Part shown: in pieces, positions 3,481-47,872 of the stretch
How positions within the stretch are numbered: position 1 is the first letter of the stretch
Layout: the number at the start of each line of letters is the position of its first letter
Source: an uncultured Planctomycetaceae bacterium
Lineage (GTDB): Bacteria; Planctomycetota; Phycisphaerae; SM23-33
Assembly (NCBI GenBank): GCA_964401835.1
Contig: CAYNZP010000006.1
Location: forward strand, 34,020-98,019
Reading direction: 5' to 3'
DNA length: 64,000 nucleotides
Notes under the pieces: model-generated
Database searches by the model: none
What the model was told of the DNA's origin: nothing
What the model saw: the letters and a program-made list of their open reading frames with translations, nothing else
Program-made: the position numbers and the translations under genes

Positions 3481-5880
3481 TTATGCGCTTGTCGGTTCGC
3501 CGTTGAGGGCGGAGCTGCCGGACTGGTCGGCGGTTATCGACTGCTGCAAGGCCTGCCAGTCCTCAAGAGTCATGAGGCATTCTCTGGCTTGCGATCCCTT
3601 GTAGTCGCCAAGCAATCCTGAATCGGCCATCTGGTCGATTATCCTGCTGGCCCGGCTGTAGCCTATCTGCAAGCGCCGCTGCAATAATGAAACGCTGCCA
3701 CGCTGGCTGGCCAGGACTATTTCCACCGCCTTGTCGAACAGATCGTCTTTGTCCCCGCCAATCTCGCCGGATGGTCTGGAATTGAGCTTCATCAGTTCAA
3801 CGTTATATTGCGGATCACCGGCGGCGTTGCGCAGCTTCTTGACGACGGTGCGAATTTCCGAATCTTCCACGAATGTTCCCTGTGAACGGATAAGGTTGCT
3901 CGTGCCCGGCTGGAGGAAAAGCATATCGCCCTGGCCGAGAAGTACATCTGCTCCATTCTGGTCGAGTACGATTCGACTCTCCTGCCTCGATGCTACGCGG
4001 AAGCTAATTCGGCAAGGCATGTTGGATTTAATCAGGCCTGTAACCACGTTCACACTGGGCCGCTGCGTCGCAAGTACCAAATGTATGCCTACCGCACGTG
4101 CCTTTTGTGCGATTCTGATTATGTGCGACTCGACTTCCTTGCTGGAGGTCATCATCAGGTCGGCCAACTCGTCGATAATAATGATGTAATGCGGTATATG
4201 GAGCGGTATGCGGGCCTTTTCTTCGTCGGTCTCGGCATCGAACCGCTCATGAATTTCTTCCTTGTTGAGCTTGTTAAAACCGGCAATATTCCTGACGCCA
4301 GCTTCCTTGAATAACTCATAGCGCTCGTCCATCTTCGTCGCAGCCCATTCGAGAATTTCCTCTGCTTTGCGCATATCGTTGACAATCGGGCAAAGCAGAT
4401 GCGGCAGATTCTCGAACATGGCCATTTCGACCATCTTCGGATCGACCAGGATAAGCCGCACATCTTCGGGAGTCCTGGTCATCAACAGCGACATGATAAT
4501 CGCATTGATGCAGACACTCTTACCCGAACCGGTCGTGCCCGCGATAAGCATATGCGGCATGCCCCCAAGATCGGCGACAATCGCATCACCGCCGGCATCC
4601 TTGCCGAGGTAAAGCGGCAGGTACATCTGGGATTCCGACTGCGGGGACATATTCATCAGTTCTTTGATGCGGACCATTTCCTTGTCGAGGTTCGGAACCT
4701 CGATGCCGATGGTGTCCTTGCCCGGAATCGGCGAGACAATTCTAACAGCCGGCACGGCCAAACTACGGGCGATATCCGTTGACAGACTCGCTACATTGGC
4801 AACCTTGACGCCCGGTGAAACCGAAAGCTCGAAAAGCGTAATAACCGGGCCTGTCATGTGTCCGACAACTTCGGCTGCCACGTTAAAGTCGTTAAGCGTC
4901 TGCTGCAATACAGCCCTCTTTTCCAGGGCCTGGGCCTCCTGAAGCTCTTCGTAGCCGCCCTTCGGGTCGGCAAGTAAGTCGGCAGTAGGAAGCTCGTAAT
5001 TTTTCGCTCCCTTATTTTCAGGCTTTTTGACAATCTTCTTCTCAATCGGCCTGGGCTGAACTGGCTTGGGCCTGAGGCGTTGTGAAAGTTCCTTGACCTT
5101 TTCCTTCATGTCCAAGGCCGGCCTGGCAACTGGCTTGGGCTTGGCAACAGAGGTCGGAACGGCTGCGACCGCCCGGGGTGAAGCTGTCAGGTTGCGAGCA
5201 TCGGCAACGGCTGGGCTCTTTTCCCGCAGTTTTGAAAATATACTGGCCATTGATGGCAGATCGCTGCGCCGAGACCATACCTTCTTGCCAAAGCGCGGAA
5301 TTTGTAATACGAGATTCTCAGCTGTGAAAACCAGCCCAAGGCAAAAAGTAAGCGCTACAACTATCCACGCGCCCGGGCCAGCCAATTTTGAGAGCAAAAA
5401 CTCCCCTGACGCCGTTCCGAGTATTCCGGCAGGAAGAGCTGCGATATCGCCATTGCCGTCAGGGTTTTTCAGATAAAGTGCGGCACTGCCGGCAGCGATA
5501 AGCAGCGCCAAACCGACCACACGCCAAGTCAGATCTTTGATTCGTCCGCCAAGGACAAGGATAAACGAAGCAAAGCTGGCGAAAAGCAGTCCGATATAAA
5601 TACCGCTGCCCAGCCAATAACGAAGGAAATGCGAAATATAAGCACCAACCAAACCGGCTGCGTTGTCCACGGGACTTTGGGGCGGATATACGCTCTGCGA
5701 CGGCGGATCGGTCTGCGAAAATGTAAGCATACTCATCCAGACCAAAACCACCACCCCGGTTAGAACGAGGATAGAACAATAACGCCAGAATCGGCTACTG
5801 GCCTTTGGATGCTCAGCAGCGGTCTGTTTTACTTTTGCTTTTTTTGTTTCTCTTTTCGCCATCCCTAGCTTTTTCCTCAA
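3481..5880 (-). CDS. ftsK: DNA translocase FtsK (N-terminal TM region, Pro/Lys-rich linker, RecA-like motor, gamma domain)
   Basis: Walker [10 protein letters not shown], Walker [12 protein letters not shown], and a C-terminal winged-helix gamma domain ([23 protein letters not shown]). Confidence 0.9.
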
Positions 5881-6329
5881 ACTCCTGTATGACCAAATCC
5901 GCCCTTGCCGCGGTTGGTTTCGTCAAGCTTTTCCACCTGCACGACATCAGCCCGCGTTACCGGGGCAATTACCATCTGGGCAATTCTCATACCGCGTTTT
6001 ACAACAAAGGGCTCTCGCCCGACGTTACAGAGAATCACGCATACTTCGCCGCGATAGTCGGCATCAATCGTTCCCGGCGAGTTCGGCAGCGTAATTCCGT
6101 GCTTCAGTGACAGGCCGCTACGGGGCCTGACCTGCGCCTCATACCCGACCGGAATAGCCATGTAGAACCCGCAGGGAATAAGCTTTATTTCCCCAGGCTC
6201 GACAGGCACCTCAGCCTCGCAAGCGGCGCACAAATCCATGCCCGCCGCATGGTCGGACATATATTGAGGCAGCGGAACGTCCTCGCAGCCTTTCTTTTGC
6301 CTTATCTGTACTTTTATCGGACTGGCCAT
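5877..6329 (-). CDS. dut: dUTP diphosphatase
   Basis: Motifs [12 protein letters not shown] and [11 protein letters not shown]. The stop overlaps the ftsK start (ATGA). Confidence 0.9.
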
Positions 6330-7060: not shown

Positions 7061-7651
7061 TTATCTTTTCTTTGGCGGGCGATTCAGAAGAATTGCCTTG
7101 ATAGCTTCGAATATGTCGGCTGGCTCGGACATTCTTCCCGGTCCAATGGTGCCGCAGGCAAGTCGGCCGGTTACCGGACCGATGGATTCGACGTTGACTT
7201 TATTGAGCCGTTCGAAATTTTCCTGCACAACCTGGCTGGACCACATGCGGGTATTCATCGCAGGTGCGATTAGTATCGGGCAGGCCCCGCTGGCCGAAAG
7301 TGCAAGCGTGCTGACAAGGTCGTCAGCCAATCCATTGGCCATCTTGCCGATGATGTTGGCTGTGGCTGGGGCGACGACCATGAGATCCGCTTGTTCCGTA
7401 AGCGAGACGTGTTGTGTGCTGTAGTCCTCAAGTGACTGCCACAAGCTTGTATGGACCGCCCTGTGCGTCACTGCCTGGAACGTCAACTGGCCGACGAACT
7501 TCTGAGCAGCCTCGGTCATCGCCACATCGACCTCGGCCCCGGCCTGGGTGAGCTTGCTGGCAAGGTCTGCAGACTTATAGCAGGCAACTCCACCCGTAAC
7601 GCAGAGCAGAACCCTGTATCCCGCAAGCGGCATGTTCGTTTTTTGGGCCAT
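7061..7651 (-). CDS. coaC: phosphopantothenoylcysteine decarboxylase (CoaC flavoprotein domain) as a stand-alone ORF
   Basis: YRVLLCVTGGVACYKSADLASKL is the flavoprotein/HFCD fold. It ends with TAA at 7061-7063. Confidence 0.8.
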   Translation of the reverse strand: MAQKTNMPLAGYRVLLCVTGGVACYKSADLASKLTQAGAEVDVAMTEAAQKFVGQLTFQAVTHRAVHTSLWQSLEDYSTQHVSLTEQADLMVVAPATANIIGKMANGLADDLVSTLALSASGACPILIAPAMNTRMWSSQVVQENFERLNKVNVESIGPVTGRLACGTIGPGRMSEPADIFEAIKAILLNRPPKKR

Positions 7652-7675
7652 GTTCTATTCTATTTCGCAGAAAAC

Positions 7676-7906
7676 CTACTTAAGGTCTTCAGGCCGAGGA
7701 ATGTCGGACTTTTCGTAATCGATGGCAATCTTGTCTTCCAGAATTTCCTGGATGACGATTTCCATGGTGGTCATGCCTTTGGGAACTTCGATAAGCGGCC
7801 TGGCACCCTGGATAATCTCGACCATACGTTTCTGGATTAAAGCGGTCAATTTGAATCTACCGCCGACCTTGTCTACGATTTCCTCGCTCTTTAGCGCTTC
7901 GATCAT
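7676..7906 (-). CDS. rpoZ: DNA-directed RNA polymerase subunit omega
   Basis: 76 aa with the omega-like motif [17 protein letters not shown]. Classic gmk-rpoZ adjacency. Confidence 0.8.
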
Positions 7907-10785: not shown

Positions 10786-11886
10786 TTAAACGGGCTCTGT
10801 CGCCTTGGGAAAACTTCCCAGAACGTGCATCTCACCACAATGGCTTCTCGCCGCTTCGAGGGCCTTGACGAAATTCTCGTCTTCAAAATGGCCGTCAGCA
10901 TCGACGAAGAAGTAATATTCCCAGTCGCGCCTCTTTGAAGGACGGGTATCGATATTCGTCAGATTAATTCCGAAACTTGCGAATACATTCAGAACATCCA
11001 CCAAGGCGCCTGACTTATGGGCTGTTGTGAACATAATCGCCGTCTTGTCATTACCGGTCCGTTTGGCAGGGGCCGGTGAAATGACAAAGAACCGCGTCAT
11101 GTTTTTCGGATTGTCCTCGATATTCGCAAAGACGGTCTTGAGTTCGTAAAGCTCTCCGGCCAGGCTTGAACCAATGGCGGCCAGTCCCTCATCAGCCCCG
11201 GCAGCGGCCATCTCGGCAGCCTTTGATGTACTGGCGACCGGAATAAGCTCAGCCTGTTTGAAGCTGGTCGAGAGCCAGTTTCGGCACTGGGCGAAAACTT
11301 CCGGCTTGGACGCTATAGACTTAATTTCCTCGGGTGCGCAATTAGCCAGGAGGTTATGATGAATCTCTACGATTACCTCGGCGTAGATATAAACGTGGGC
11401 GCCAATGAAAGAATCCAGCGTGTCAACCACGCCGCCGCCGACGTTGTTCTCTATCGGCACGAGCCCCAGGTCGCAATGGCCGCGGGCAACCTCTTCGAAA
11501 ACCGCCCTGATATCAGCCAGGGGACGGTACTCGACGGAGGCTCCAAATTTTTTCTGAGCTGCCAAGTTGGAAAAGCTACCTTCCGGGCCCAGATAACCTA
11601 TGCGAAGCGGTTTTTCGAGTGCAAACGAACCGCTCATCAGTTCACGGTAAATCGCCTGGAGTGTTTTTTGTGGAAGTGGGCCTTTATTGAGCTTGGCAAT
11701 CCTCTCGAACACGGCATGTTCCCGGTCGGGCGCGTAGATGGGCGCGTCGTTGGCGAGTTTAGTCTTGCCAACTTCGACAACTACATCCGCCCTGGCGTTG
11801 AGAAGCTCGACTATTTTTGCGTCCAACTCGTCGATTTTCTTCCGCAACTGCCCGAGGTCTTTATTCTTGCCTTTCTTATCGCTCAT
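10786..11886 (-). CDS. pheA: bifunctional chorismate mutase / prephenate dehydratase (P-protein)
   Basis: N-terminal CM helix (LRKKIDELDAKIVELLNARA), a PDT domain (IGYLGPEGSFS) and a C-terminal ACT-like region. Confidence 0.85.
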   Translation of the reverse strand: MSDKKGKNKDLGQLRKKIDELDAKIVELLNARADVVVEVGKTKLANDAPIYAPDREHAVFERIAKLNKGPLPQKTLQAIYRELMSGSFALEKPLRIGYLGPEGSFSNLAAQKKFGASVEYRPLADIRAVFEEVARGHCDLGLVPIENNVGGGVVDTLDSFIGAHVYIYAEVIVEIHHNLLANCAPEEIKSIASKPEVFAQCRNWLSTSFKQAELIPVASTSKAAEMAAAGADEGLAAIGSSLAGELYELKTVFANIEDNPKNMTRFFVISPAPAKRTGNDKTAIMFTTAHKSGALVDVLNVFASFGINLTNIDTRPSKRRDWEYYFFVDADGHFEDENFVKALEAARSHCGEMHVLGSFPKATEPV

Positions 11887-12013
11887 CGTTTTAGCTTCTT
11901 ATTTCCTAAGCGCAGGGAATTCCCGCAAATATAGACGGGTCTTTGTACCCGCGGTTGGCCTTTTGGTCAAGGTTTTTTGCAGCCCGAATGGGGCAAAAAC
12001 AGACCTAAAACGC

Positions 12014-14263
12014 CTAGACAAGGCTTATCGGGTCGACATCGGTGATAATCTCAGCCGGAATATGGCCGGTCAATTCAGCCATCCGAGGTGATATTATCTG
12101 CTGTACAAGGCCCGCCCTGGCGGACATCAGCATTATCTGGAAACGGAATTGCTTGCGAATCTTCAGGACGCCAGCCGGCATCGGGCCCATCATTGAAACT
12201 CCATCGGGCAGTAACTTTCTGAGCCGATCAGCCAGCATCTTGGCCCCCTCCTCGGCCCGTTCGATCTTTTCGTGGCGGATGACAAACCTTATCATGCGGG
12301 CAAATGGCGGTAAGTGCATTTGCTTACGAGGATTAAGCTCATAATTGGCAAAGCCGTCATAATCGTGATTCAAGGCGAATTGTATAGCCGGCTCTTCCTC
12401 ATGAAGCGTCTGGACGACAACCTCTCCGGGCACCTGTGCCCGCCCTGCCCGCCCGGCAACCTGGACTATCAGCTGGAATGTCCGCTCAGCCGCCCGGAAA
12501 TCGGGTATCGACAGTGAAGTGTCAGCTGAAACCACGCCGACGAGTGACACTCGCGGGAAGTCCAACCCCTTGGCAACCATCTGCGTTCCGAGCAAGATAT
12601 CCAGCTTGCCCTGAGAAAATTCCTCGAAGACCTTTTTGAATTGTTTCGGCGAGGTCATCGTGTCGCTGTCCATCCGGGCTACTTTCGCCTCCGGAAATTT
12701 GCGGTCAAGCTCATCCTCTATCCGCTGTATTCCCATGCCAAACAGCAGCAGCTTTCCTTTGCAGGCCGGGCAGTAATCCAGCAGAGTCTGCGTATGCTGG
12801 CAGTAGTGGCACATCGCCAACTGCGTCGCCTGGTGGAAAACCATCATCCGCGTGCAATGTTCGCACACCATCTCCCACTTGCACTTGGGGCAGAACACAT
12901 AGCTGGCGTAGCCGCGGCGGTTCATCAGCAGGATAATCTGCTCGCTACGATCCAGCGCGGCAGCCATCTTTTGCGTAAGCGTCCTGCCGATAAGTTCGAT
13001 CTTGCCCCGCTGGAGTTCCCTGCGAAGGTGCACTATCTGGAGCTTGGGCATCTCCAGGCCGCGGACACGTTTGGGCAGCCGCAGCATTTCGTATTTGTCG
13101 CTCTTGACATTTTGCAGCGATTCCAGCGAAGGCGTAGCCGAGCCAAGTACAATCGGCACGTCCGCAAGGGCTGCGCGTTTGACCGCGACATCTCTGCCGT
13201 GGTATCGCGGTGTGGTGTCCTGCTTGTAGGTCGGTTCGTGTTCCTCATCGACGATAATCAGGCCGAGTTTTCGTGTCGGCGCGAATATCGCACTTCTCGG
13301 GCCTACCACAACGCTTGCTCCCCCGCCGAGTATCTGCTGGTAATAGAAAGCCCGCTGTGCGTCGGTCAGACCACTGTGAAGCACCGCCACTCGAGGCAGC
13401 CGTTGTATGAGTCGTTCGAGTGTCTGGGTCGTCAGGGCGATTTCCGGCACGAGCAGAATTGTCTGTTTGCCGGCTGCAATCATTTTACGTATCGCACGAA
13501 TGTAAACTTCTGTTTTTCCGCTGCCGGTTACCCCATAAAGAAGTGATGCGGAAAAGCCGCCGCTGAGTTTCCCATCAAGTTCGGCAAGGACCTTTTGCTG
13601 GTCGCTATTAAGCTCGAATGAATCGCCCCCATCCTCATCGCTAAGTTCTGGAAGCGTTACAGGGTGGGTTTCCGTGCGGACAAGCTCTCTGCCGGAGAGG
13701 CGGCTGAAACTGTCACGCGATGCACCACTGTGCGAAAGCAGCTGTTCAAGAGTAAGCGGCTCGATTCCCTGTTTGCGGGCCTCGTAAAGCTCATCGAGAA
13801 TCTTTTTTTGCCGCAAACCAAGCCTCGCAGGCCAATCTTTGCGATTACTATCCAGAAATACGACGGTCTGATTTTTCGGGCCATGCCTGCCGACTGCCGA
13901 TGGGATCATAGCTGCCAGCGTCATTCCAGGCGGACTGATGTAATACCGGCTAATCCACTCGCCAAGTTCGAACAGCTGCGAATCGAGCTGAGCTTCCCTG
14001 TCGATTACCTCGCTGACAACTTTGAGCTTATGCCTGCCCGCCCGCCGGAGTGTATCTACGACAAAACCGAGCGTCTTGCGATTTGACCTGCCGAAAGGAA
14101 CGCGGACTCTCGCACCGACCTGTGGCTCGCCAAGTGCGTCAGGCCAAGCGTAGTCGAAGCTCTCCCAGACATTCGCAGCAACTGCTACCCCCACCACCCG
14201 CGCTTGTGAGGCCGGCTGGGACGCAGGAACATTCGAGTCCTTGTCTTCAAAAAGCACTCCCAT
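12014..14263 (-). CDS. priA: primosomal protein N' (replication restart helicase)
   Basis: Walker A GVTGSGKTEVY, DEEH box IVDEEHE, and a Cys-rich zinc-binding insertion (CPKCKWEMVCEHC...CHYCQ...CPACKG). Confidence 0.9.
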   Translation of the reverse strand: MGVLFEDKDSNVPASQPASQARVVGVAVAANVWESFDYAWPDALGEPQVGARVRVPFGRSNRKTLGFVVDTLRRAGRHKLKVVSEVIDREAQLDSQLFELGEWISRYYISPPGMTLAAMIPSAVGRHGPKNQTVVFLDSNRKDWPARLGLRQKKILDELYEARKQGIEPLTLEQLLSHSGASRDSFSRLSGRELVRTETHPVTLPELSDEDGGDSFELNSDQQKVLAELDGKLSGGFSASLLYGVTGSGKTEVYIRAIRKMIAAGKQTILLVPEIALTTQTLERLIQRLPRVAVLHSGLTDAQRAFYYQQILGGGASVVVGPRSAIFAPTRKLGLIIVDEEHEPTYKQDTTPRYHGRDVAVKRAALADVPIVLGSATPSLESLQNVKSDKYEMLRLPKRVRGLEMPKLQIVHLRRELQRGKIELIGRTLTQKMAAALDRSEQIILLMNRRGYASYVFCPKCKWEMVCEHCTRMMVFHQATQLAMCHYCQHTQTLLDYCPACKGKLLLFGMGIQRIEDELDRKFPEAKVARMDSDTMTSPKQFKKVFEEFSQGKLDILLGTQMVAKGLDFPRVSLVGVVSADTSLSIPDFRAAERTFQLIVQVAGRAGRAQVPGEVVVQTLHEEEPAIQFALNHDYDGFANYELNPRKQMHLPPFARMIRFVIRHEKIERAEEGAKMLADRLRKLLPDGVSMMGPMPAGVLKIRKQFRFQIMLMSARAGLVQQIISPRMAELTGHIPAEIITDVDPISLV

Positions 14264-14688: not shown

Positions 14689-15183
14689 ATGGCAGAAAAC
14701 ATAACGGGAAAACCGACAGGCCAGGAACCCCCTATCGAGGGCAGCAAGATACTGGTCGTTGACGACAACGCACAGAATCTCGAGCTAATCGTCGCTTATC
14801 TAGATACCATTGATTGCAAGATTTCCACCGCTGTCGACGGCGTCGAGGCTCTGGACAAAGTTCAAGCCGAGCAACCAGACCTTATCCTGCTTGATATCAT
14901 GATGCCTCGCATGAGCGGTTTTGAGGTTTGCCGCAAGCTTAAATCAGACCCGGCCACGCGGGATATCCCGATAATAATGGTCACTGCTCTGAACGAACTT
15001 GGCGATATCGAGCGAGGTGTCGAAAGCGGCACGGACGATTTTATTTCCAAGCCGGTAAATCGTCTCGAACTGCTTACACGCGTAAAGAGCCTGCTTCGCG
15101 TTCGCCACCTCAAGAGTGAACTCGACCGTACGCTCGCCTACCTCAATAGTGTTGAAAGCGAAAGCCAGCCATCAACCAACTGA
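14689..15183 (+). CDS. stand-alone CheY-like response regulator receiver protein
   Basis: ILVVDDN ... DLILLDIMMP ... KP receiver motifs. Strong SD AAGGAG 8 nt upstream. Confidence 0.8.
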   Translation: MAENITGKPTGQEPPIEGSKILVVDDNAQNLELIVAYLDTIDCKISTAVDGVEALDKVQAEQPDLILLDIMMPRMSGFEVCRKLKSDPATRDIPIIMVTALNELGDIERGVESGTDDFISKPVNRLELLTRVKSLLRVRHLKSELDRTLAYLNSVESESQPSTN

Positions 15184-15198: not shown

Positions 15199-17925
15199 AT
15201 GAAACCCGGATTTTTTTTTGCGGCAATTCTAATCGCCTTCCTCGTTTTCGCCCCGCTATGCCTCGCTGATGCCCAGCCCTCAACCAAGCCGGCATCACTA
15301 GCCGTAGCAGAGACGCTCGTTTCTCAGCCGGGCCTGGTCGTAGCGAAACTGGAAAATGGGCTGACCGTGATTGTAAAACGCTCAGCCGGCACTGGAGTCG
15401 TTACTGTCCGAGGTTATGTGCGGGCTGGCAGCATTTTCGAAGATAAATGGCTGGGTTGCGGTGTAAGCCATCTGCTCGAGCACCTTGTCGCCGAAGGCGC
15501 CGAGCACGACGGCCAAGGCCCTACTGCTGATCAAGCAAAGAATGCGTCCTCGCGAGTTGCACAAATTGGCGGTCAGTCAAACGCCTATACATCGCTGAGC
15601 TATACCTGCTATTACATCTCCGCCGCTGCCGGAAAAACCGACGATTGCGTTGCGCTGGTGGCAGACTGGCTGGCCAGGCCGGAGATAACGAAAGAGGCTT
15701 TCGAGAGAGAACACGGGGTCGTGCAGCGCGAACTCGAGATGCGAAAGAACGAGCCCTCCCGACAAATATGGCAGGCCAACATGGCCAACGCCTTTGCCGG
15801 TCATCCCGCCGAAGTTCCGATCATCGGCTATCAAAGCCCCCTTTCAAAGCTTACACACGAAGACGTACTGGCTTACCACAAGAAAATGTACATCCCGCAG
15901 AATATGATCTTCTGCGTCGTCGGCGATATTGACCCTCGAAAAGTTTTGGAAAAGACCCGGCAGGAATTTGCAGGCATGGAACCGGGAAGAGTTCCCAGTC
16001 ATTCTCTGCCACAAGTTCCACCAATTTCCGGCGTCAAAAGAGCCCTGCGTCAAAGTCCAGCCATCAGTGAAATTATCGGGCGGATTAATTTCCGCACCAT
16101 CCCCCTTTTACATGAAGACCTGTATGCACTCGACGTGCTCTCGTACGTCCTGTCTGAAGGCAAATCCAGCCGCCTTTTCCGCAAAATACAGCGGGAAAAT
16201 AAACTGGTAACATCCATTAGCTCAGGTTCATGGACACCTGACTGGGGAAATGGGATATTTGTTGTTAGCTTCCGCGCAAAGCCCGAAAACGCAGACGCAG
16301 CAGAGGCTGCCATCATTGATGAGCTGAAAAAGATAGCCGCCGATGGCGTAACGGCTGATGAGCTCAAGCGGGCGAAGAGACAAAAAGTCGCCGACTTTGT
16401 TTATTCTCAACAGACAATCGAATCCCAGGCCCAAACACTCGCAGGCGATTTTCTTAGCACCGGCGATATAAACTTCAGCCAGGATTATACAGACAAAATC
16501 CAGGCTGTAACCGCCGAGCAGGTGCAAAAGGCTGCCAGGAAATATTTCACATTCGACAAGATGGCTGTAACGCTTATGGTGCCCAAGGCCGAAGCTCCTG
16601 CAACTCAGCCGACGACTCAAGCAGGCGAAAAAAACGAGGAAATCTCATTTGAGCTTCCAAATGGGCTCAGGGTCATCCTCCAGCCTACCAATGGCGGGCT
16701 GGTTTCCATGACCTTTGCGACCAAGGGTGGGCTGCTTCTGGAAGACGAGCGAACAAACGGCTTCGGCACATTGATGACCGCACTGAGTACCAAAGGCGCT
16801 GGCGAACTCTCGGCCGAGCAGATTGCAGAATTCTTCGACTCTGCCGGCGGGCAGATTGTGGCCAACTGCGGTAACAACACCTTCTACTGGCAGGCGACGG
16901 TCCTGGAAGATAGCTCCAGCCGCGCGTTGGATATCTTTGCAGACGTAATAATCCGGCCCACGCTTAGTGAAAAGGAACTGGAAATATTGCGGCCGGTGCA
17001 GCTGGCGAAGATAAGGATGGTCGATGAGAACTGGCAGTCGCAGTTGCAAAAGTTCTTCCGCAGCAACTTCTTTAATAATCCACAATACAAACTTCTTCCG
17101 GTCGGCAGCGAAGAGGTTGTCGCTTCGGCCACTGCCGAGCAGATAAAACAGTGGCACAAATCCATCCATGGTGGTGCAAGTGTACTGACAGTTTACGGGA
17201 AGTTTAATGCGGATGAAGCTCGCAAAAAGATAGAAACACTTTTCGAGGGCCTTCCCGCTGGGATGACAAAGCTGTCCGGACCGATTGAACCAAAAACTGT
17301 TCTGGTAGACGAAACTACAGTTCTCAAGACAAAAAATACCGTTGCGGGTGTGATAGTGGCCGTGCCTGGCATGACCCTGGATAACCTTGAGGACCGATTC
17401 GCGATCGACGTGTTGGATACAATAATAAGCGGCTATCATCTGCCCGATGGCTGGCTGCACAACGAACTACGCGGAAAGCAGCTGGTATATGTCGTCCACG
17501 CATATAACTGGATGGGGCTACTTCCAGGCGCATTTATTACCTATGCGGCCGGCCAGCCGGAAAACGTGGAAAAAGTCGTTGAGATAATCAAAGACAATCT
17601 CAGCAAGGCCTCCCAATACACGCCAACCCAGCAAGAGATTGACCGGGCGGTTAATGTGATTCTGACGGCTGAGCTTCTGGGCAACCAGGAGCTTTCGGCC
17701 AGAAGCCTTTCAGCGGCACTCGATGAGCTTTATTACGGTTTTAGTTTAAGAAGCAAACTCGAACAATATTATCGCAAGGTTACGCCGGCTGACGTCGCAC
17801 GTGTCGCGAAAAAATATCTTTCCGGGCCTTACGTTACAATCGTAACGAGCCCGCAGAATTTTGAGACGGAAGATTTGGAAGACAAAAATTCACAGGGGCT
17901 TCAAAAAGACGGCTCTTCAGAGTAA
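15199..17925 (+). CDS. secreted M16-family zinc peptidase (pitrilysin/insulinase-like, duplicated two-half architecture)
   Basis: Signal peptide. Inverted zinc-binding motif HLLEH in GVSHLLEHLVAEG. Two ~450-aa halves, each with the M16 fold (YGKFNADEARKKIETLFEGL in the second half). Confidence 0.85.
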   Translation: MKPGFFFAAILIAFLVFAPLCLADAQPSTKPASLAVAETLVSQPGLVVAKLENGLTVIVKRSAGTGVVTVRGYVRAGSIFEDKWLGCGVSHLLEHLVAEGAEHDGQGPTADQAKNASSRVAQIGGQSNAYTSLSYTCYYISAAAGKTDDCVALVADWLARPEITKEAFEREHGVVQRELEMRKNEPSRQIWQANMANAFAGHPAEVPIIGYQSPLSKLTHEDVLAYHKKMYIPQNMIFCVVGDIDPRKVLEKTRQEFAGMEPGRVPSHSLPQVPPISGVKRALRQSPAISEIIGRINFRTIPLLHEDLYALDVLSYVLSEGKSSRLFRKIQRENKLVTSISSGSWTPDWGNGIFVVSFRAKPENADAAEAAIIDELKKIAADGVTADELKRAKRQKVADFVYSQQTIESQAQTLAGDFLSTGDINFSQDYTDKIQAVTAEQVQKAARKYFTFDKMAVTLMVPKAEAPATQPTTQAGEKNEEISFELPNGLRVILQPTNGGLVSMTFATKGGLLLEDERTNGFGTLMTALSTKGAGELSAEQIAEFFDSAGGQIVANCGNNTFYWQATVLEDSSSRALDIFADVIIRPTLSEKELEILRPVQLAKIRMVDENWQSQLQKFFRSNFFNNPQYKLLPVGSEEVVASATAEQIKQWHKSIHGGASVLTVYGKFNADEARKKIETLFEGLPAGMTKLSGPIEPKTVLVDETTVLKTKNTVAGVIVAVPGMTLDNLEDRFAIDVLDTIISGYHLPDGWLHNELRGKQLVYVVHAYNWMGLLPGAFITYAAGQPENVEKVVEIIKDNLSKASQYTPTQQEIDRAVNVILTAELLGNQELSARSLSAALDELYYGFSLRSKLEQYYRKVTPADVARVAKKYLSGPYVTIVTSPQNFETEDLEDKNSQGLQKDGSSE

Positions 17926-17959: not shown

Positions 17960-18589
17960 GTGTCAGGAAACGAAGATATTCTTAATAAGTCCGTACGAGA
18001 ATTCGCCGCGGCTACCGCAGCCAAGAGCCCCACTCCAGGTGGCGGAAGTGTCGCAGGTGCAGTAGGTTCTCTCTCGGCTGCACTTGGTGAAATGTCGTTG
18101 AACTTCACGCGCGGCAAAAAGAAATACGCCGAGCACGAGGAATATTACGCACAGCTGGCCACCCGGCTGGAAAACGCCCGTAAGATGTTCGAAAACCTGG
18201 TCGCTGACGATATCCAGGCATATAAACTCTATCAGGAAGCGCAGAAGCAGGAAGACGGCCCAGACAAGCAGCAGGCCGTCCAGCTCGCCACAGCAGCGGC
18301 TATCGACGTTCCGCGCGAAACGACTAAGCTTTCGCTTGCCGTGCTGAAAGACCTCGAACAATTTGCCGACAAGTGTAACCCATGGCTGATTACCGACCTG
18401 ATGGCATCTGCGGCACTTGCCGTGGCAACAATTCAGCTTTCTGACTACAACGTCTGCGTAAACATACCGAGTGTTTCAGACAAGTCCGCTGCCGAAGAAA
18501 TCCTCCAAAGCTCCAAGGCCGACCTTGCAAAGGCGAAAGAGCTTTTCGAAATTATCGAAAAGGCCGGCTTTAAGATTCTCGGTTACTAA
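17960..18589 (+). CDS. FTCD_C-like cyclodeaminase/cyclohydrolase-domain protein
   Basis: PTPGGGSVAGAVGSLSAALGEMSLNFTRGKKKY matches the formiminotransferase-cyclodeaminase C-terminal (FTCD_C) signature. GTG start at 17960 with AGGAG 8 nt upstream. The ORF-track start at 17861 overlaps the M16 gene. Confidence 0.7.
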   Translation: MSGNEDILNKSVREFAAATAAKSPTPGGGSVAGAVGSLSAALGEMSLNFTRGKKKYAEHEEYYAQLATRLENARKMFENLVADDIQAYKLYQEAQKQEDGPDKQQAVQLATAAAIDVPRETTKLSLAVLKDLEQFADKCNPWLITDLMASAALAVATIQLSDYNVCVNIPSVSDKSAAEEILQSSKADLAKAKELFEIIEKAGFKILGY

Positions 18590-18597
18590 AAACTAAA

Positions 18598-19104
18598 ATG
18601 GCAAAAGAATATAGCGTTAACAAAACGGCTGGGCAGTGTTGTAACTGCGAAAAGCAGCTCGAAGTCGGTGTGGAATTCGTCGCCACGCTGAAAGAAGCGT
18701 CGGAAGAATTTCTTCGCGAAGACTTCTGCCTCTCTTGCTGGGAAAATCACAAAGACAACTGTCAGCCAGGCATGCTTGGCTTTTGGCACAGTAAAGTTGC
18801 ACAGCCGCAGGAAAAGAAAAAGTTATTTGTCGATAACGAGCTTTTAATAAACTTTTTTGAGCGATTGGATGGCTCGGAAGAACCGGCTAAGATTAATTTC
18901 CGTTTCGTTCTGGCTTTGATATTGATGCGAAAAAAATTGCTGGTTTATGAAGGCAGCTCAAAAATGGATGATGGCCGAGACACCTGGACGATGCACCTCA
19001 AGGGCAGCGAGGAAAAACACCAGGTTATCGACCCGAAGATGGACGATGAGAAAATTTCGCAGGTGAGCGAACAACTGAGCGAAATTCTGGAAGGTGAGTT
19101 TTGA
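18598..19104 (+). CDS. hypothetical Cys-rich cytoplasmic protein (CxxC ... CxxC zinc-ribbon-like N-terminus)
   Basis: QCCNCEK ... CLSCWENH. No recognisable family. Lies 9 nt after the FTCD_C gene. Confidence 0.5.
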   Translation: MAKEYSVNKTAGQCCNCEKQLEVGVEFVATLKEASEEFLREDFCLSCWENHKDNCQPGMLGFWHSKVAQPQEKKKLFVDNELLINFFERLDGSEEPAKINFRFVLALILMRKKLLVYEGSSKMDDGRDTWTMHLKGSEEKHQVIDPKMDDEKISQVSEQLSEILEGEF

Positions 19105-20030
19105 TAATCATTCGCAACATCGCGATATCAGCCCTGCTAATTCTGGCGGCGGTTTTCACCGGCTGCGAGTCGACCTGTCCGCCGGCAGAGACCATTATTT
19201 CCCGTCCGCAACTCGTCACGGAATACAACGCCAACGCAGCAGCCGTGCCACGTCTTTGGGCAAGAGCAAAGGTCAAGGTAAGCCTTAAAGGTTTAAGCTG
19301 GGGTTCGACAAGCCCCCTCTCGCCGCCTAACGGCCTGATGCTTTTGGCTAAAGGCAACGACAAACAAGGACCGCACGATTTCCTGCTCAAAGCCGGCGAA
19401 ATGGCTTCTATAGATTTATTCCGCCTGGGCAGCAATACAGAACCCGGCATCTACTATCTCCAATATCAACTTGGCGAGCAGGGCCAAGCCTGGTGGGGCT
19501 GGAATCATCTGGCCGGGGCGCCCGGAGTAGATATTCCAATCGACCCAAATCAGTTACTCGAAGTTTTGGGGATTTTCGAACTGCCAGACGACTTTACCAA
19601 ACTGCCCACAGTCGAAGTGACCATGAGCTGCAATCCGTGTGCTTATGTGCTGACCTATCTCGACACCCAGCCGATAAGCGGCAACATTGGTTTTAAGCGA
19701 GAGGTTTATATCAATTGGGACACAGCAAAACCTCGTCGGCCTTTCATGGTTAACTTCTTCGGCCCGGACGGCAGGAGAATCATGACCGCAAAGTTAAAAG
19801 ATTATAAACCGATCGACACGACCGGAATGGACAATCCGCCGGCAAGCCCGCCAATAATGCCGACCGATATCGAAATAGCTTGGCCGGAAAAGAAGACTTC
19901 CGTCCATATCATGCTATCCGAAATGACCACCGAAGAAAAATGGATGCGAGAGGCCTGCCAATTCAAGCCCGGCAACCTGCCACAGGTGCATGTAGACAGA
20001 GCCTTAATGGACGGAGGCGCAGCTAAGTGA
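19101..20030 (+). CDS. hypothetical lipoprotein
   Basis: Lipobox LLILAAVFTGC. TTG start overlaps the upstream stop (TTGA). No recognisable family. Confidence 0.5.
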   Translation: MIIIRNIAISALLILAAVFTGCESTCPPAETIISRPQLVTEYNANAAAVPRLWARAKVKVSLKGLSWGSTSPLSPPNGLMLLAKGNDKQGPHDFLLKAGEMASIDLFRLGSNTEPGIYYLQYQLGEQGQAWWGWNHLAGAPGVDIPIDPNQLLEVLGIFELPDDFTKLPTVEVTMSCNPCAYVLTYLDTQPISGNIGFKREVYINWDTAKPRRPFMVNFFGPDGRRIMTAKLKDYKPIDTTGMDNPPASPPIMPTDIEIAWPEKKTSVHIMLSEMTTEEKWMREACQFKPGNLPQVHVDRALMDGGAAK

Positions 20031-21646
20031 AAAACCAACGCCTCCTGATTACATTGGCCATACTGGGCATTCTTTTAACTATCCACAGCAGCGCAATTGC
20101 CGGACCGAATTCTCTTATGATCTCAGGCGAAGAAAAAGGTCTGTGGTTAGTCCGCAACAATCTGGCCCAAAATAATTTTGACGTTGTATTCAGGCCGACT
20201 GGCGAAGACTGGAAATGGATAGACAAAGGCCGAACAGGCCGACCGTCAGCCATCACGGCAATTGCTGGCCAGTTGCATGTCCTGCTCGAACCGGCAGGTT
20301 ATCTGATATTTGATCCGAGCTCAAAAAATAAGCCCACACCTTCTCTGACGCCAAATGCGCCGAATTGGCCCGCCGGTGTTGGTGCGTTGGCAGTGTGTGA
20401 CGCAAGCGGTCTGAATGGAAACCAAAACCTTGCTCTTTTGGCTATAGCAGCAATGGAAGAAAAGGTTGATACGGACCAGGTTCGGCAAGTGAAGCTGGGG
20501 GTTTTTGAGTATTCAGACGCCCAATGGCAATTTTTAACACAACTCGACGGCGTCACACTTCAAGCGGATAGTAAAATTCGGGCCGCGACCTTCAAGGGCA
20601 AGCTTTACGTGGCAATTTCTCCTTCCGAGAAAGATAAAAACCGCCTCTTGGTTTGGGATAAAGAAAAATGGCTGGACAAGGACCTGCCCGCCCAAGCCGC
20701 CACGGCAAAAGTGCTGGCCACGATGAACCTCAACGACGACTTGATCATCGCCCTGGCAAATGAGATTTCTCCCGACAAATATAAATTCTCACTCGCTGCC
20801 CTCAGCGACAGCGAAAAATTTATCCTCAAGCCGGTATTCTCTGACGATACAGTGCCGGAGCGAACTTTCGATTTTCCACCACTGGCGGGGAGACTCTCAA
20901 AAAGAATAGCGTTCCTGTGGCAACAGGAAGAAATTTTGGAACTAGCATCATGCGACCTTAACGGCCAAATGGTGATTCCATCGGAAGTGAACATCTTCAA
21001 GAAACCTCCGCTCAAGGGCGGCGGCGAAAAGATATTTGAATACTTCATGTTCGGCCTGATCATTGCGGTTTTTGTCCCGATGTTCGTCATTCGGCCGCGC
21101 AGACCTATTAAACCCCTCACGCTTCCTGAGACAATGAAACCAGCGCACCTTCTCAAAAGGCTCGCGGCAGCTATTATCGACCTGATTCCATTTTTAATCC
21201 TGATGAGCTTAATTTTCCTGTTTTCCCTGCCACCCATACCCGAAGGTGAGTTCGAATACCTTAAGCTTTTTGTTAAGCTTTTATTCACTCAACAAGCAGG
21301 TCCCGCAAGCGCCGCCTATGCGAAAATCGTGGGCATGGTGCTTTATGCGGTTTACTGCATAATCACGGAAAAACTCTTTAATGCCACGCCGGGTAAGATG
21401 CTGCTAAAGCTGCGAGTCGTGGCAGATGAGGGAAACCGGCCTCACCTGAGAGAGATTCTGCTGCGAAATTTTGTCAAGCTGATCGAGCTTTTTCAAATCA
21501 CCTTGCTGCCATTACTGGCTGCTTTTGTAATTATTACACGAAAGCATCAGCGACTCGGTGATATGGTAGCCAGGACGGTTGTTGTCGAAGAGAATAAGAC
21601 CCCTCCCAAAAAACCTCAAAAAAACGACGACAAAGCAAATTCGTAG
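20027..21646 (+). CDS. secreted/periplasmic domain protein with a C-terminal RDD-family membrane domain
   Basis: N-terminal signal peptide and a ~330-aa soluble region. The C-terminus has 3 TM helices with the RDD signature (LKRLAAAIIDLIPFLIL ... RLGDMVARTVVV). GTG start overlaps the upstream stop (GTGA). Confidence 0.6.
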   Translation: MKNQRLLITLAILGILLTIHSSAIAGPNSLMISGEEKGLWLVRNNLAQNNFDVVFRPTGEDWKWIDKGRTGRPSAITAIAGQLHVLLEPAGYLIFDPSSKNKPTPSLTPNAPNWPAGVGALAVCDASGLNGNQNLALLAIAAMEEKVDTDQVRQVKLGVFEYSDAQWQFLTQLDGVTLQADSKIRAATFKGKLYVAISPSEKDKNRLLVWDKEKWLDKDLPAQAATAKVLATMNLNDDLIIALANEISPDKYKFSLAALSDSEKFILKPVFSDDTVPERTFDFPPLAGRLSKRIAFLWQQEEILELASCDLNGQMVIPSEVNIFKKPPLKGGGEKIFEYFMFGLIIAVFVPMFVIRPRRPIKPLTLPETMKPAHLLKRLAAAIIDLIPFLILMSLIFLFSLPPIPEGEFEYLKLFVKLLFTQQAGPASAAYAKIVGMVLYAVYCIITEKLFNATPGKMLLKLRVVADEGNRPHLREILLRNFVKLIELFQITLLPLLAAFVIITRKHQRLGDMVARTVVVEENKTPPKKPQKNDDKANS

Positions 21647-22248
21647 AATCACCAGAAGACCCTTAACTAGAACCTGTTAAGCACACGCCATAAAACCACC
21701 CTGGAATTTTTTGCATAAAAAAGAGGGCGGCTGCCAAGCCAATGCGCGGGGGGAGACGCATCGACAAAGGCGAACCGCCCTCAATATCATGCATAAAAGA
21801 CACTTATACACTTAGAAAATCAAAGTGTCACAATCAGACCGGCCAACCGGAAAGACAGGAAACAAACAGGTGTAACTTATTGCAAACAATGGACTTTCCT
21901 GCTTAATCAAGCCTGAGTTTTGCTTGATCGGCGCTTCTAAAATTAAATAGGGCACCGTTGTGTAGCCGCGTCGAGGCCCGCCAAGGGCCCCCCCCATGGC
22001 ACACACAGACGGTGCCCAATATTGTTACATTGGGTACACCATTCCACGGCGGTCCGGGGAAGCTGATACTTGGCGGTTTTGACGCGGACGCCAAACAAAA
22101 AACCTTAACTCTATTCACTTGTAGGACACATACTCTATCAACCAACACAGAAAGGTCAAGGCTGTTGATGTTAATCCACAAAATTCTTTTGGGGAAAGTT
22201 TGATGGTTTGAAAGAACACGAATCTGACAGAATAAAGATTTTGCCACC

Positions 22249-22281
22249 CAAAATGGCCCGCAGTCTAAAGAGCTGGGGGCC
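22249..22281 (-). terminator. putative intrinsic terminator downstream of ppiB
   Basis: On the minus strand, a GGCCC...GGGCC stem is followed by a short U run (AUUUU). It lies just past the ppiB stop. Confidence 0.4.
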
Positions 22282-22317
22282 ATCGTGAAAGTGTCTGTAA
22301 TTTCTTAATCGAGACCT

Positions 22318-34584: not shown

Positions 34585-35991
34585 CTAAATAACCTCAGCC
34601 AGCGTCGTTTTGCCGAGAGATTCACGGGCCAGGCCCTCTACTCGTGATATCCGTTGCGATATCTGCAAATCGAAATTTTCGACAGATAGATCCTTTTCGA
34701 CCGTGCTGATTTCCATCAGTTCCAGCAGCGATATCTTCTCAGCCGGGCGGGCAAGGACGTATGCCTCCTGCAGGTCCGATTCCACTGGATAGACAATTCC
34801 GATGGCCCGCAGTCGTGTCATAATCTTCCCGACCGACGATTCAGGCAAATCAAGCGCGGCAGCTATTTGCTCCATGCTCACCGGCCCGCTACCCTGGCTG
34901 TATGGCTGGGCGACAGCGAAAGCTGCTCCGAGCAACCGGGAATAACTGACTGGCTCTCCCTCTTCGACTGCGTGAATATTCATCCCGGATAAACTTATTG
35001 CGGCATGGGCAAGCTCCGCACCAAAAAGGAATATCAGCCATGAGAGGTTCAGATACAGTAAAAATATTGGAAGCAGGCCCAACGCTCCATACAGGCTGTT
35101 CTTGCCGACCTCGCTGACATAAAGCCCGAACCCCCACCGCGCGACCAGCCAAAGTGGAAGCGCCACAATCGCACCGCCGGCTGCAGCGCGAAATGGTACG
35201 CGAGTGTTTGGCATCAGAGAGTAAATCGCCGCAAGCAAAATCAATCCGATAATCACAGGCCCGATCCATATGGCTGCGGAAACTATCCAGGATACTCCGT
35301 CGTTATCCTCTATCCCGCCCATTATCTGCTTGCCAGCGTAAATCGCACCAGCCATCGCCACCGGTACCAGTGTCAAAACGGACCAATAGACCAAAATCCT
35401 CCGCACAAGAGACCTGCTGCGTGGAGCGGCAAAAATCCGGTTAAGCGACCTTTCTATTGTGGTCAACAAGGTAAGCGCCGTCCAAATCAACAAGACAACG
35501 CCGATGGGACCGATTTTTCCAAGAGTGAGTTTTCGCTCGATCTTCTTTACGAGTTTTTCAATGTGGCCGGATACGGTTATCACATCATTTTCTCTGCGGC
35601 GTCTCCTTGGCCTTTGAGTTTCCTGCTCACCCAGCTGGGATGTTGAAGCATCTTTAAAAGATTCTCTTGCAGGTCGCTTTTCGGTCACGATCTGTATCTG
35701 CGAAAAGCCAACTCCCTCCAGAATATCGCTGAGACGTATATCGCTTTTTTCCACAACACCTACAGATTTCAGCACAAGCAGCGATAGCACAAGAACAGGA
35801 ATCATCGCAAAAAGTGTTCTGAACGAAAGCGCCGCGCTCATCGCCATGGCGTTATGCTCATGAAGCCGCCGGCCACAGAGTCGCCAGAGTTGGATATTAA
35901 TCTTTACAAGCTTTGCCCATCGGCCTAACTCGTCTCCTGGTGCGGTAAGAAGTGTTCTTATACGTTGGCGGAGCTTGCTGATTATTTTCAT
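34585..35991 (-). CDS. YihY/BrkB (virulence factor BrkB / RNase BN-like) family membrane protein with a C-terminal extension
   Basis: Six TM helices with the YihY signature (MSAALSFRTLFAMIPVLVL ... NLSWLIFLFGAELAHA). Confidence 0.75.
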   Translation of the reverse strand: MKIISKLRQRIRTLLTAPGDELGRWAKLVKINIQLWRLCGRRLHEHNAMAMSAALSFRTLFAMIPVLVLSLLVLKSVGVVEKSDIRLSDILEGVGFSQIQIVTEKRPARESFKDASTSQLGEQETQRPRRRRRENDVITVSGHIEKLVKKIERKLTLGKIGPIGVVLLIWTALTLLTTIERSLNRIFAAPRSRSLVRRILVYWSVLTLVPVAMAGAIYAGKQIMGGIEDNDGVSWIVSAAIWIGPVIIGLILLAAIYSLMPNTRVPFRAAAGGAIVALPLWLVARWGFGLYVSEVGKNSLYGALGLLPIFLLYLNLSWLIFLFGAELAHAAISLSGMNIHAVEEGEPVSYSRLLGAAFAVAQPYSQGSGPVSMEQIAAALDLPESSVGKIMTRLRAIGIVYPVESDLQEAYVLARPAEKISLLELMEISTVEKDLSVENFDLQISQRISRVEGLARESLGKTTLAEVI

Positions 35992-38900: not shown

Positions 38901-39641
38901 TTTGCCGTCCTGCAAAAGCTCCCTTATCTCGAGCTCGCCGCTCAGAACCCCCTGCTGGCCAAGTTTTGCCTTCAGACCGCCAGTGATTTCGTTGAGCGTA
39001 TTGAGCTCAAATCCACCGTTGATATCACGAACGTCATAACTCCGCCCATCTTCTCTGACAAGTTGAACATTCATATCCCGCAGAATCAATTTGCCTTTGG
39101 GTTGGGGCATGGGTTCGTCGTGGTCGTAAGGTTTTGGTTTGCTTGGCTCTAGCGCCTGAACTAATGATATTCCGCCGTCATCAGAGATATGAAGAACCGC
39201 ACTGGAATCATCAAGGTTAACCTGTTCAAAATTTTCGACTTCTGTAACAGCTCTCCAGACACCGCCAGCCCAGCTTATATTCTCAACTTCCAGAACATTC
39301 CGACCGCCGACGTCCTTTACGCTCAAGCTGTTAATCTTTGTAGGTCCAAGCCACGAAATTGAAAGGTCTTCGGCCTCGATGTCTCCCTTTACCTGCCCGC
39401 TGAGAATTGAAAAGGCCAAACTTGTTCCGGGCCCGGTGGAAATCAAATATGGCAGGATGAAAACGAGCATCGTGAGGAACACCGATAAAGAAACAATCCA
39501 AATCAATCGCCTGTGTTTGCGCTTTTTACTAACGGTAGCTTTTTTTATACCGTGTTTCATAGCCCGCCTCCCCATTAAGAAATGACCCCTACAAGGGCCA
39601 AACGTAAGCCAGAATTCTTCATAACATTCTATCAACGACAC
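35988..39641 (-). CDS. AsmA/TamB-like giant envelope protein (1217 aa)
   Basis: N-terminal TM anchor followed by a long beta-rich region with an AsmA/TamB-like N-terminus. Overlaps yihY by 4 nt. Confidence 0.7.
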   Translation of the reverse strand: MSLIECYEEFWLTFGPCRGHFLMGRRAMKHGIKKATVSKKRKHRRLIWIVSLSVFLTMLVFILPYLISTGPGTSLAFSILSGQVKGDIEAEDLSISWLGPTKINSLSVKDVGGRNVLEVENISWAGGVWRAVTEVENFEQVNLDDSSAVLHISDDGGISLVQALEPSKPKPYDHDEPMPQPKGKLILRDMNVQLVREDGRSYDVRDINGGFELNTLNEITGGLKAKLGQQGVLSGELEIRELLQDGKLTPDRANGEVRVFSDYNIDLASLTEFALEDAVVAGKLSLEIDATLKQGRQLTGNLDATITDLHTPRDGAVEIKPIDVSVVGRLLPDESNVKGELSVASRAGEFQALLIYPRDKGFPKFKADKIASAAMAGEHLELSEFNLEASGKIDLPTLGDSIPAVMKLKRDVDIQQGRLDISEFLVIGGETPTAKARVELKDLQATKAGRIIRSEPIVLRISADSQEQRGVLLFGDIKTGFGNAEVNASADNMTTDFSLNLEQLDRQFGEIFELTDGRLWGDLTGRLDVIRPQKDRLDFAVKANISSFRYETPKRDLDFAKADFSHKGNLVLKDKKPVRYIASENELGIDESVFVSGDGWYDFKQKTFEGDAKLTSEIAYLGRRADYFGMEGLKKYSGILAADAKVGKASLKEIITVSANGRIEDLRVNGQNVTQRNILFNMAESTFARKHKTLKIPQASVDSDVARVDFRGINCKLTEPLSLNGTFDINSDLSKAMPAIKKTLELKKQPAIEGELQWTGRFDSKGSAVTSTGRGEIANFVIGEEKQFSEPKAQFSYEAELDQQEKSLVLRRAEVNSRLVSGKMSGNLKRYDTDRIVELTGNYTVNMDRLSTLLGEFSPSMADNISFTGSRNSSFSATGPTSQQDVRPGFKGLDAQSNFGWDSGRLYGLNLGRATLEAKLDDGRVNIPVSAVAASGGKLRMGGLVDFQPTEPRYQLPGVVQVMEDVEINRELADELLSRINPIFARQAEIEGKVSLKTWDISLPLGESIKQGGGGRGYMDLRNLKIQPTGLFRQLLLLSTLSSQEKQTVEVDGVDFVIRNGRIQYDNFVMRLSDDFDMKFYGSVGFDDTVNLVVSLPISPELLDKLGVGGPVIDYARVLNGTRIDIPIVGSRLNPVLDFVRVNVDGLIRRAIQILILEQAGEVGDIFKIPGGESPSQLPPGEDKPQKRPSKDKDIGDTIFDILRGTLEDEDKKEKPE

Positions 39642-47865: not shown

Positions 47866-47872
47866 TTTTTTC

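Follow-up and report, generated by a model that had tools for sequence, protein, structure and literature searches.

A three-gene unit conserved across Phycisphaerae encodes a LolB-like lipoprotein, an RDD-domain membrane protein and a zinc-ribbon protein

In a 64,000-nucleotide (nt) stretch of DNA from an uncultured Planctomycetaceae bacterium of the Phycisphaerae lineage SM23-33 (assembly GCA_964401835.1, contig CAYNZP010000006.1, positions 34,020 to 98,019), here called the window, we analyzed a trio of overlapping genes whose products of 168, 309 and 539 amino acids (aa) are referred to as P1, P2 and P3, respectively. Throughout Phycisphaerae the three genes are passed on and expressed together, i.e. 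they are co-transcribed and translationally coupled. P2 is exported, carries a lipid anchor at its N-terminus and has the acyl-chain-binding fold of LolA and LolB, while P3 is an inner-membrane protein in which a predicted periplasmic Kelch-like propeller is joined to an RDD membrane domain. We tentatively favor the view, to which as a whole we assign slightly less than an even chance, that the trio is an undescribed module for lipoprotein or lipid handling in the cell envelope of Phycisphaerae, built around the LolB-type lipoprotein. A physical P2-P3(-P1) complex and a role in lipoprotein trafficking are put forward as hypotheses.

Organization and conservation of the trio

The positions of the genes, their junctions and domains, together with the upstream genes, are collected in Table 1. 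The three open reading frames (ORFs) and their 4-nt overlaps, TTGA and GTGA, had been noticed in a preliminary description of this DNA, and coordinates as well as junctions were verified in the sequence. Shine-Dalgarno-like GAAGGTGA and GGAGG motifs can be read inside the upstream genes, 5-10 nt before the internal starts, with GGAGG located 9 nt 5' of the GTG of P3. The overlapping TTG start of P2 is forced, since it is the sole start codon that preserves the signal peptide, with zero further ATG, GTG or TTG codons before the lipobox. The same three genes were called by independent gene callers on two public contigs with an identical region (JGI 3300009128 Ga0118727_1000120 and an ENA assembly). 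In a scan for promoters and terminators, terminator-like sites were as frequent as expected from shuffled sequence and no convincing promoter or terminator was found inside the trio, and an Rfam search of 12-26 kb of the window returned zero RNA elements.

Table 1. Positions of the trio, its junctions and domains, and the upstream cluster genes in the window.
Feature	Position (nt)	Strand	Description	Basis
P1	18598-19104	+	168 aa, ATG start	ORF list
P2	19101-20030	+	309 aa, TTG start	ORF list
P3	20027-21646	+	539 aa, GTG start; inner-membrane protein	ORF list, hydropathy, homologues
TTGA junction	19101-19104	+	P2 start TTG over P1 stop TGA (..GAG TTT TGA)	sequence
GTGA junction	20027-20030	+	P3 start GTG over P2 stop TGA (..GCT AAG TGA)	sequence
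P3 periplasmic domain	20105-21031 (aa 27-335)	+	Kelch-like propeller, predicted	
P3 RDD domain	21140-21571 (aa 372-515)	+		Pfam PF06271
Response regulator	14689-15183	+	receiver-only; first gene of the cluster	Pfam Response_reg, E 1.3e-29
M16 metallopeptidase	15199-17925	+	exported, double M16 (pitrilysin-type), 908 aa	Pfam Peptidase_M16/M16_C x2
FTCD_C gene	17960-18589	+	cyclodeaminase/cyclohydrolase-type; 8 nt upstream of P1	Pfam PF04961, E 2.8e-42

By scanning one genome per GTDB species, relatives of P1 were found in at least 532 genomes, and 80 loci were retrieved. Synteny was counted with tblastn and profile hidden Markov models (HMMs) built from alignments, over 67 independent loci in which the sequence continues for 2.9 kb or more downstream of P1. 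P2 was present in 65 of these, and in 62, all from different species, P1, P2 and P3 were collinear within 4.5 kb. Four-nt NTGA overlaps were possible at the P1/P2 junction in 60 out of 75 loci and at the P2/P3 junction in 53 out of 71. Collinearity and overlap pattern are far beyond chance. The preliminary description had proposed a check of the three-gene synteny, with sporadic occurrence of the proteins, never together, as the outcome that would refute a common system; this outcome is clearly contradicted, since the trio is collinear in nearly all of the loci.

The members of the trio differ in how far they have diverged. A word-indexed protein search returned 1438 homologues of P1, the best 120 of which were 42-64% identical, all but one at least 53%; no functional name was found among these 120, and the few organism labels were Phycisphaerae or Planctomycetota metagenome-assembled genomes (MAGs). 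For P2, more than 200 homologues were found at 41-58% identity. Relatives of P3 have diverged to about 30% identity (range 20-40%) where they adjoin P2. The full trio also occurs in a complete Sedimentisphaerales chromosome (locus L087; OY762711.1), in another neighborhood than that of the window. As read from ORF translations only, a 136-aa lipoprotein is encoded upstream of the trio in that chromosome (7483-7893), and a 351-aa lipoprotein downstream on the opposite strand (11048-12103), followed by a sigma-70-family gene.

Features of the three proteins

P2 carries the lipobox VFTG-C22 (Cys codon at nt 19164-19166), preceded by a hydrophobic signal sequence, in agreement with its earlier description as a 309-aa lipobox lipoprotein. 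The lipobox Cys is invariant in 40 out of 40 homologues and the Gly at position -1 is found in 37, and P2 has the N-terminal lipobox with a lipidated Cys that is looked for in a LolB. No Pfam or NCBIfam match was obtained for P2 at E<=1. Among the 40 homologues there were one DUF4292 match (E 0.46) and one LolA_like match (E 0.038), both at noise level, and a profile search of PDB sequences matched no Lol protein. The AlphaFold2 model, based on an alignment of the 40 homologues, has a predicted local distance difference test score (pLDDT) of 92.2 and a predicted template modeling score (pTM) of 0.87, and in it about 13 beta-strands come after a helix at the N-terminus, i.e. the N-terminal helix and unclosed antiparallel beta-barrel of the LolA/LolB fold. 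In structural comparisons the model scored 15.7, with 215 residues aligned, against the DUF4292 protein LolB of Porphyromonas gingivalis (9tpm_A), 15.2 against a putative outer-membrane lipoprotein-sorting protein (3bk5), 14.2 against a DUF1329 protein and 13.2 against LolA3 of P. gingivalis. The scores were 8-12 for LolA proteins, 11.3 and 11.0 for LolB of E. coli (1iwm) and V. cholerae, respectively, and 6.1-6.8 for RseB and MucB. On the strength of the model, membership of the LolA/LolB superfamily is thus a strong assignment that is very probably correct. The preliminary description had seen no recognizable domain in P2, which holds for Pfam and NCBIfam but not at the level of the fold.

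Two further properties of P2 were read from the alignment of its homologues. Cys26 and Cys180 co-vary, both being present in 19 of the 40 sequences and both missing in 14, which is the pattern expected for a periplasmic disulfide. Furthermore, LolB function is known to require a beta3-beta4 loop that protrudes and exposes a Leu, i.e. Leu68 in E. coli and Leu74 in LolB1 of Flavobacterium johnsoniae (PMC11885536). The candidate for this loop in P2 comprises residues 84-92, flanked by predicted strands at 78-83 and 93-99, and Leu89 is found in 28 of the 40 homologues. Leu73, which lies in another conserved loop (WGSTSPLAxPNG), is found in 27 of the 40. As the anchor and the fold match but membership of the sequence family fails, P2 is here termed LolB-like rather than LolB.

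P3 begins with a signal peptide of cleavable type (residues 5-26, AIA/G), and four hydrophobic segments resembling transmembrane (TM) helices were identified by hydropathy at residues 335-358, 374-407, 428-447 and 482-506. The RDD domain matches PF06271 at E 5.8e-21, with 75.7 bits against a cut-off of 24.1 and positions 1-136 of the 137 in the model covered, and was also found in 34 out of 35 P3 homologues. In the alignment, R480 and R509 are invariant and R378, D385 and D512 nearly so, and the hallmark of RDD, an Arg before the first TM helix together with two Asp, is present in P3. The N-terminal part of about 310 aa is placed in the periplasm, since by the positive-inside rule the loop that follows the first TM segment (RPRRPIKPLTLPETMKPAHLLKR) is cytoplasmic. 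Signal peptide, ectodomain and C-terminal RDD module had all been proposed for P3 beforehand and were recovered here.

Like P2, the P3 ectodomain lacks a Pfam or NCBIfam domain, and no Pfam Kelch model reached a useful E-value in the P3 family members scanned, yet Kelch propellers were matched at the profile level. When the ectodomain was compared with itself using hhalign, it aligned off the diagonal at shifts of about 47-56 and 99-105 residues with probabilities of 48-78%, and of 68-78% for shifts of about 50 and 100 residues, i.e. the tandem repetition of about 45-55 residues that is expected of Kelch-type blades. The family profile searched against PDB sequences matched thiocyanate-forming protein (5a10, E 2.1e-4), the Kelch domain of IVNS1ABP (6n3h, E 5.1e-4), epithiospecifier protein (5gq0, E 2e-3) and the PLL lectin propeller (E 2.6e-3). 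Because of the internal repeats and the matches to several unrelated Kelch propellers, we infer from sequence a Kelch-like propeller of some six blades, each of about 50 aa.

P1 is a soluble cytoplasmic protein, and no signal peptide or TM segment was found in it by hydropathy. Its N-terminus is a C4 zinc ribbon, with the two CxxC knuckles (C14-x-x-C17 and C44-x-x-C47, nt 18637-18738) on beta-hairpins, followed by a basic EKKKLFVD linker, a C-terminal alpha-beta-beta-beta-alpha domain and an acidic tail; the two CxxC pairs and the acidic C-terminus (..SEILEGEF) were already part of the preliminary description. The AlphaFold2 model (pLDDT 79) comprises a beta-hairpin zinc-ribbon region, the linker and a well-predicted C-terminal domain, at the heart of which lies an invariant FRFVLALxLMRKK helix. 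Pfam and NCBIfam scans of P1 and 30-40 homologues gave nothing above noise, and a profile search of PDB sequences gave zero matches. A function as Tat-type signal-peptide chaperone was considered for P1 and rejected, the signal peptides of P2 having no conserved twin-arginine motif.

In an exhaustive profile search, the P1 family comprised 2188 clusters at E<=1e-3, and only 109 at E<=1e-30. Various gene contexts were found among its distant members. At L088 (1858-4320) the P1 domain is N-terminal to a xylose-isomerase-like TIM barrel (AP_endonuc_2) in a protein of 491 aa in total, and a P2-like lipoprotein follows this fusion (P2 HMM, E 8e-11). At L089 (5001-10093) and L090 (1832-6162) P1 overlaps by 4 nt a signal-peptide-bearing protein of 1245-1467 aa, after which comes ComEC. 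These large proteins are built of PKD/Big_9 repeats that resemble K319L, to which HEAT repeats are added at the C-terminus in L089; the P1 members there keep an intact CxxC...CxxC, and the neighboring PSCyt1, PSD1 and DUF1501 genes look Planctomycetia-type. In a Ca. Brocadiia MAG (L091, 5346-8268; GCA_035389845.1), an FTCD_C gene and P1 are followed by a 585-aa polytopic membrane protein, with P2 and P3 absent. A paralogue of the membrane protein lies on the opposite strand, and an exported PF17131 protein (LolA_like/TP_0789-like) is encoded two genes away. The order at L092 is FTCD_C, an 81-aa Cys-rich ORF, P1, a P2-like lipoprotein and an RDD protein. The P1 homologue of this locus is without zinc-ligand cysteines of its own, and the 81-aa ORF before it (5693-5938; ..CCHVYG..CPSCG..) might be a split-off zinc ribbon or might be spurious. 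Lastly, P1 stands alone at L093. P1 is consequently a phylum-level protein, often encoded after FTCD_C and with a tendency to translational coupling with proteins that are exported or lie in the membrane.

A proposed envelope module and its alternatives

According to the scheme that we favor, P2 would be a periplasmic binder of acyl chains, belonging to lipoproteins or to some other lipid, and would be either the outer-membrane lipoprotein acceptor and inserter of the class, which is the role of LolB in Proteobacteria and Bacteroidota, or a dedicated carrier. P2 or its cargo could dock in the periplasm on the propeller of P3, and the RDD module may couple this periplasmic event to the inner membrane and the cytoplasm. 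P1, made in a fixed ratio with P2 and P3, would probably act in the cytoplasm as a partner or regulator of the membrane component and not specifically of P2, since members of its family are paired with various other exported or membrane proteins elsewhere in Planctomycetota. An envelope-associated machine or stress module had been suggested at the outset; an envelope module with a LolB-like P2 is what we retain of this, whereas P1 did not prove to be a dedicated subunit. A more daring version, which we regard as unlikely, is a complex across the inner membrane, peculiar to Planctomycetota and made up of P1, P2 and P3, where the propeller would hold the LolB-fold lipoprotein while P1 and the intramembrane site of RDD that faces the cytoplasm would gate or report the flux of lipoproteins or lipids.

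Several observations weigh against the lipoprotein-handling module. At the sequence level P2 falls outside both Pfam LolB (PF03550) and DUF4292 (PF14125), and the P2 of the window has Gln instead of Leu at the candidate loop tip, position 89. The fold does not fix the function of P2, since proteins with the LolA/LolB fold also serve as sensors (RseB/MucB), enzyme activators (GerS) and lipid carriers (LppX). The propeller is called from weak profile matches. P3 is absent beside P1 and P2 in a few lineages, namely at Sedimentisphaerales-type loci where the pair of P1 and lipoprotein is followed by an unrelated gene, and P1 is neither a dedicated P2/P3 subunit nor specific to the trio. Finally, conserved synteny without shared function has a precedent in lolB-ispE of Proteobacteria (PMC9963962).

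The trio also differs from the known systems that it resembles. P2 is only 11% identical to LolB of P. gingivalis (LolB-PG; PGN_0994, DUF4292, PDB 9tpm), for which a structure appeared in April 2026 (PMC13103446). P2 exceeds this protein by about 70 residues and has no DUF4292 or LolB match. For the Bacteroidota proteins, i.e. LolB-PG and LolB1 of F. johnsoniae, neither zinc-ribbon nor propeller-RDD partners are reported in the literature searched, whereas P2 is translationally coupled to both. With LolB of E. coli, Vibrio and Xanthomonas (PF03550; 1iwm, 8cm1, 8orn_D) P2 shares no sequence similarity; it is larger, carries the Gln at the candidate tip, and is found in the context of P1 and P3 instead of ispE. 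LolB had been regarded as restricted to beta- and gamma-Proteobacteria (PMC9963962), and our literature search found no paper linking Planctomycetes or Planctomycetota with LolB.

Concerning P3, a bona fide RDD domain with the Arg and two Asp is shared with SppI/YteJ, the Halobacillus andaensis antiporter, VanZ-RDD proteins and Mam1B. SppI of B. subtilis binds and inhibits the membrane protease SppA (PMC7568657), the Halobacillus protein is a Na+/H+ antiporter (PMC5996927), RDD is often fused to VanZ, with a proposed intramembrane binding site that faces the cytoplasm (PMC12419801), and the domain also occurs in the Mce-associated Mam1B of M. tuberculosis. As the reported functions, cation/H+ antiport and protease inhibition, disagree, RDD gives little mechanistic guidance. 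P3 resembles SppI in being encoded near an exported peptidase, just as sppI adjoins sppA (PMC7568657). In contrast to what we propose for P3, the RDD proteins described in the literature searched are not reported with a Kelch-like propeller in the periplasm, nor with a lipoprotein resembling LolB or a zinc-ribbon protein as partner.

The peptidase in question belongs to a cluster upstream of the trio, which was counted over 64 loci with enough upstream sequence. The HLLEH motif (HxxEH) and the N-terminal signal sequence of this M16 protein were read from its translation. The full order of response regulator, M16 peptidase, FTCD_C, P1, P2 and P3 was found in 42 loci, while only the peptidase was missing in six, only FTCD_C was kept in four and none of the three upstream genes was found in 12, including L087. 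FTCD_C lies directly 5' of P1 in 52 out of the 64, and also in the Ca. Brocadiia MAG and another distant lineage. The M16 peptidase is found upstream in 42, comprising most of the relatives outside Sedimentisphaerales, and the response regulator in 48. The latter is the most conserved gene of the cluster (63-93% identity, median 78%), exceeding even PriA. No cognate kinase is encoded near it.

Among the alternatives, the one that survives best is an envelope-stress or trafficking sensor, which we consider rather improbable. P2 would here sense intermediates of lipoproteins or lipids in the periplasm, much like RseB/MucB, NlpE or RcsF, and the signal would run through the propeller and RDD of P3 to the cytoplasmic P1, perhaps involving the response regulator and the exported M16 peptidase. 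RseB and MucB, the LolA-fold sensors of the sigma-E pathway, have a LolA-type lipid-binding fold like P2 and, as in the arrangement proposed for P2 and P3, a membrane partner that signals to the cytoplasm. However, these are two-domain soluble periplasmic proteins with an anti-sigma partner, a description that does not fit P2.

Somewhat less probable again is a conserved operon of functionally independent housekeeping genes, in which P2 alone would be LolB-like, P1 would possibly be tied to the upstream FTCD_C, P1 and P3 would do unrelated jobs, and the overlaps would reflect compact architecture. The P1 family is indeed far wider than those of P2 and P3, and precedes elsewhere the PKD giants and ComEC or a polytopic membrane protein, or stands alone. 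The FTCD_C-P1 adjacency persists in Ca. Brocadiia without P2 and P3, the surrounding genes of the window are housekeeping ones, and the lolB-ispE precedent applies here as well. Against independence, the P1-P2-P3 order and both 4-nt overlaps survive in lineages where P3 is only 20-30% identical, and the trio travels as a block into other neighborhoods, as in Sedimentisphaerales and at L092. The recurrent coupling of P1 to exported or membrane proteins moreover suggests an envelope-related role and not random adjacency.

An outer-membrane tether or spacer, with an outer-membrane-anchored P2 held by the propeller of the inner-membrane-anchored P3 so that both membranes are joined, is very improbable. 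In its favor, a survey that met none of the known outer-membrane tethers in Planctomycetes proposed a novel type there (bioRxiv 10.1101/2021.05.31.446380), and a lipoprotein plus an inner-membrane protein with a large periplasmic domain is the architecture in question, but no peptidoglycan-binding or coiled-coil spacer domain was found in Pfam scans, the LolB-type fold is a ligand-binding barrel and not a structural tether, and the P2/P3 pair was met only in Phycisphaerae-type lineages among the loci examined, not phylum-wide.

The wider window and the meaning of the locus

The rest of the window consists of core housekeeping genes, identified by Pfam as PdxJ, DapA, FtsK, CoaBC, Gmk, YicC, TpiA, PheA and PriA, with further genes for cyclophilin, alkaline phosphatase, EF-P, ClpB and FabF-like proteins; two more ORFs resemble KdsB and PyrG by translation only. 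A mobile or defence element was rejected, given this core housekeeping neighborhood and the vertical synteny. In the 670 nt (21647-22317) that separate P3 from the convergent cyclophilin gene, no gene was called. Rfam matched nothing there at its gathering thresholds, and the ORFs of either strand are all short and probably spurious.

Some other genes of the window appear to be connected to the envelope or to lipids. A 1217-aa protein (35988-39641, minus strand) matches DUF748 only weakly (E 3e-5, short of the cut-off) and may be AsmA/TamB-like. Its gene overlaps by 4 nt that of a BrkB-family membrane protein with a C-terminal Rrf2-like stretch (34585-35991, minus strand), and the two may constitute another envelope-related pair. 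A 757-aa protein (39967-42240) contains four DUF11 repeats, a DUF7507 domain and a stretch resembling OMP6 of Chlamydia, and is probably a repeat protein of the surface or the cell wall. Tandem beta-ketoacyl-synthase genes (FabF/FabB-like; 46579-49186, minus strand), the second with a weaker C-terminal domain, resemble the KS/chain-length-factor-like pairs of polyunsaturated or unusual lipid pathways.

A LolB-like lipoprotein is of a known kind, while its combination with Kelch-RDD and zinc-ribbon proteins, in Planctomycetota, was not found in the literature searched. How lipoproteins are inserted into the outer membrane in diderms beyond beta- and gamma-Proteobacteria is an open question, LolB-type proteins having been recognized in Bacteroidota only in 2024-2026, and the present locus offers a concrete, class-wide LolB-fold candidate together with two conserved partner genes. 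It is also a functional entry point to RDD, a large family without agreed function, and brings out an unannotated zinc-ribbon family of more than 2000 clusters that seems to accompany exported or membrane proteins across Planctomycetota. Should the three proteins form one machine, this would bear on lipoprotein sorting outside Proteobacteria and on the function of RDD. If they were to form the complex across the inner membrane, the sorting of outer-membrane lipoproteins would have a new architecture for its final step or for its quality control, RDD would gain its first mechanistic role, and proteins of the P1 family would serve various envelope systems of the phylum as general cytoplasmic adaptors.

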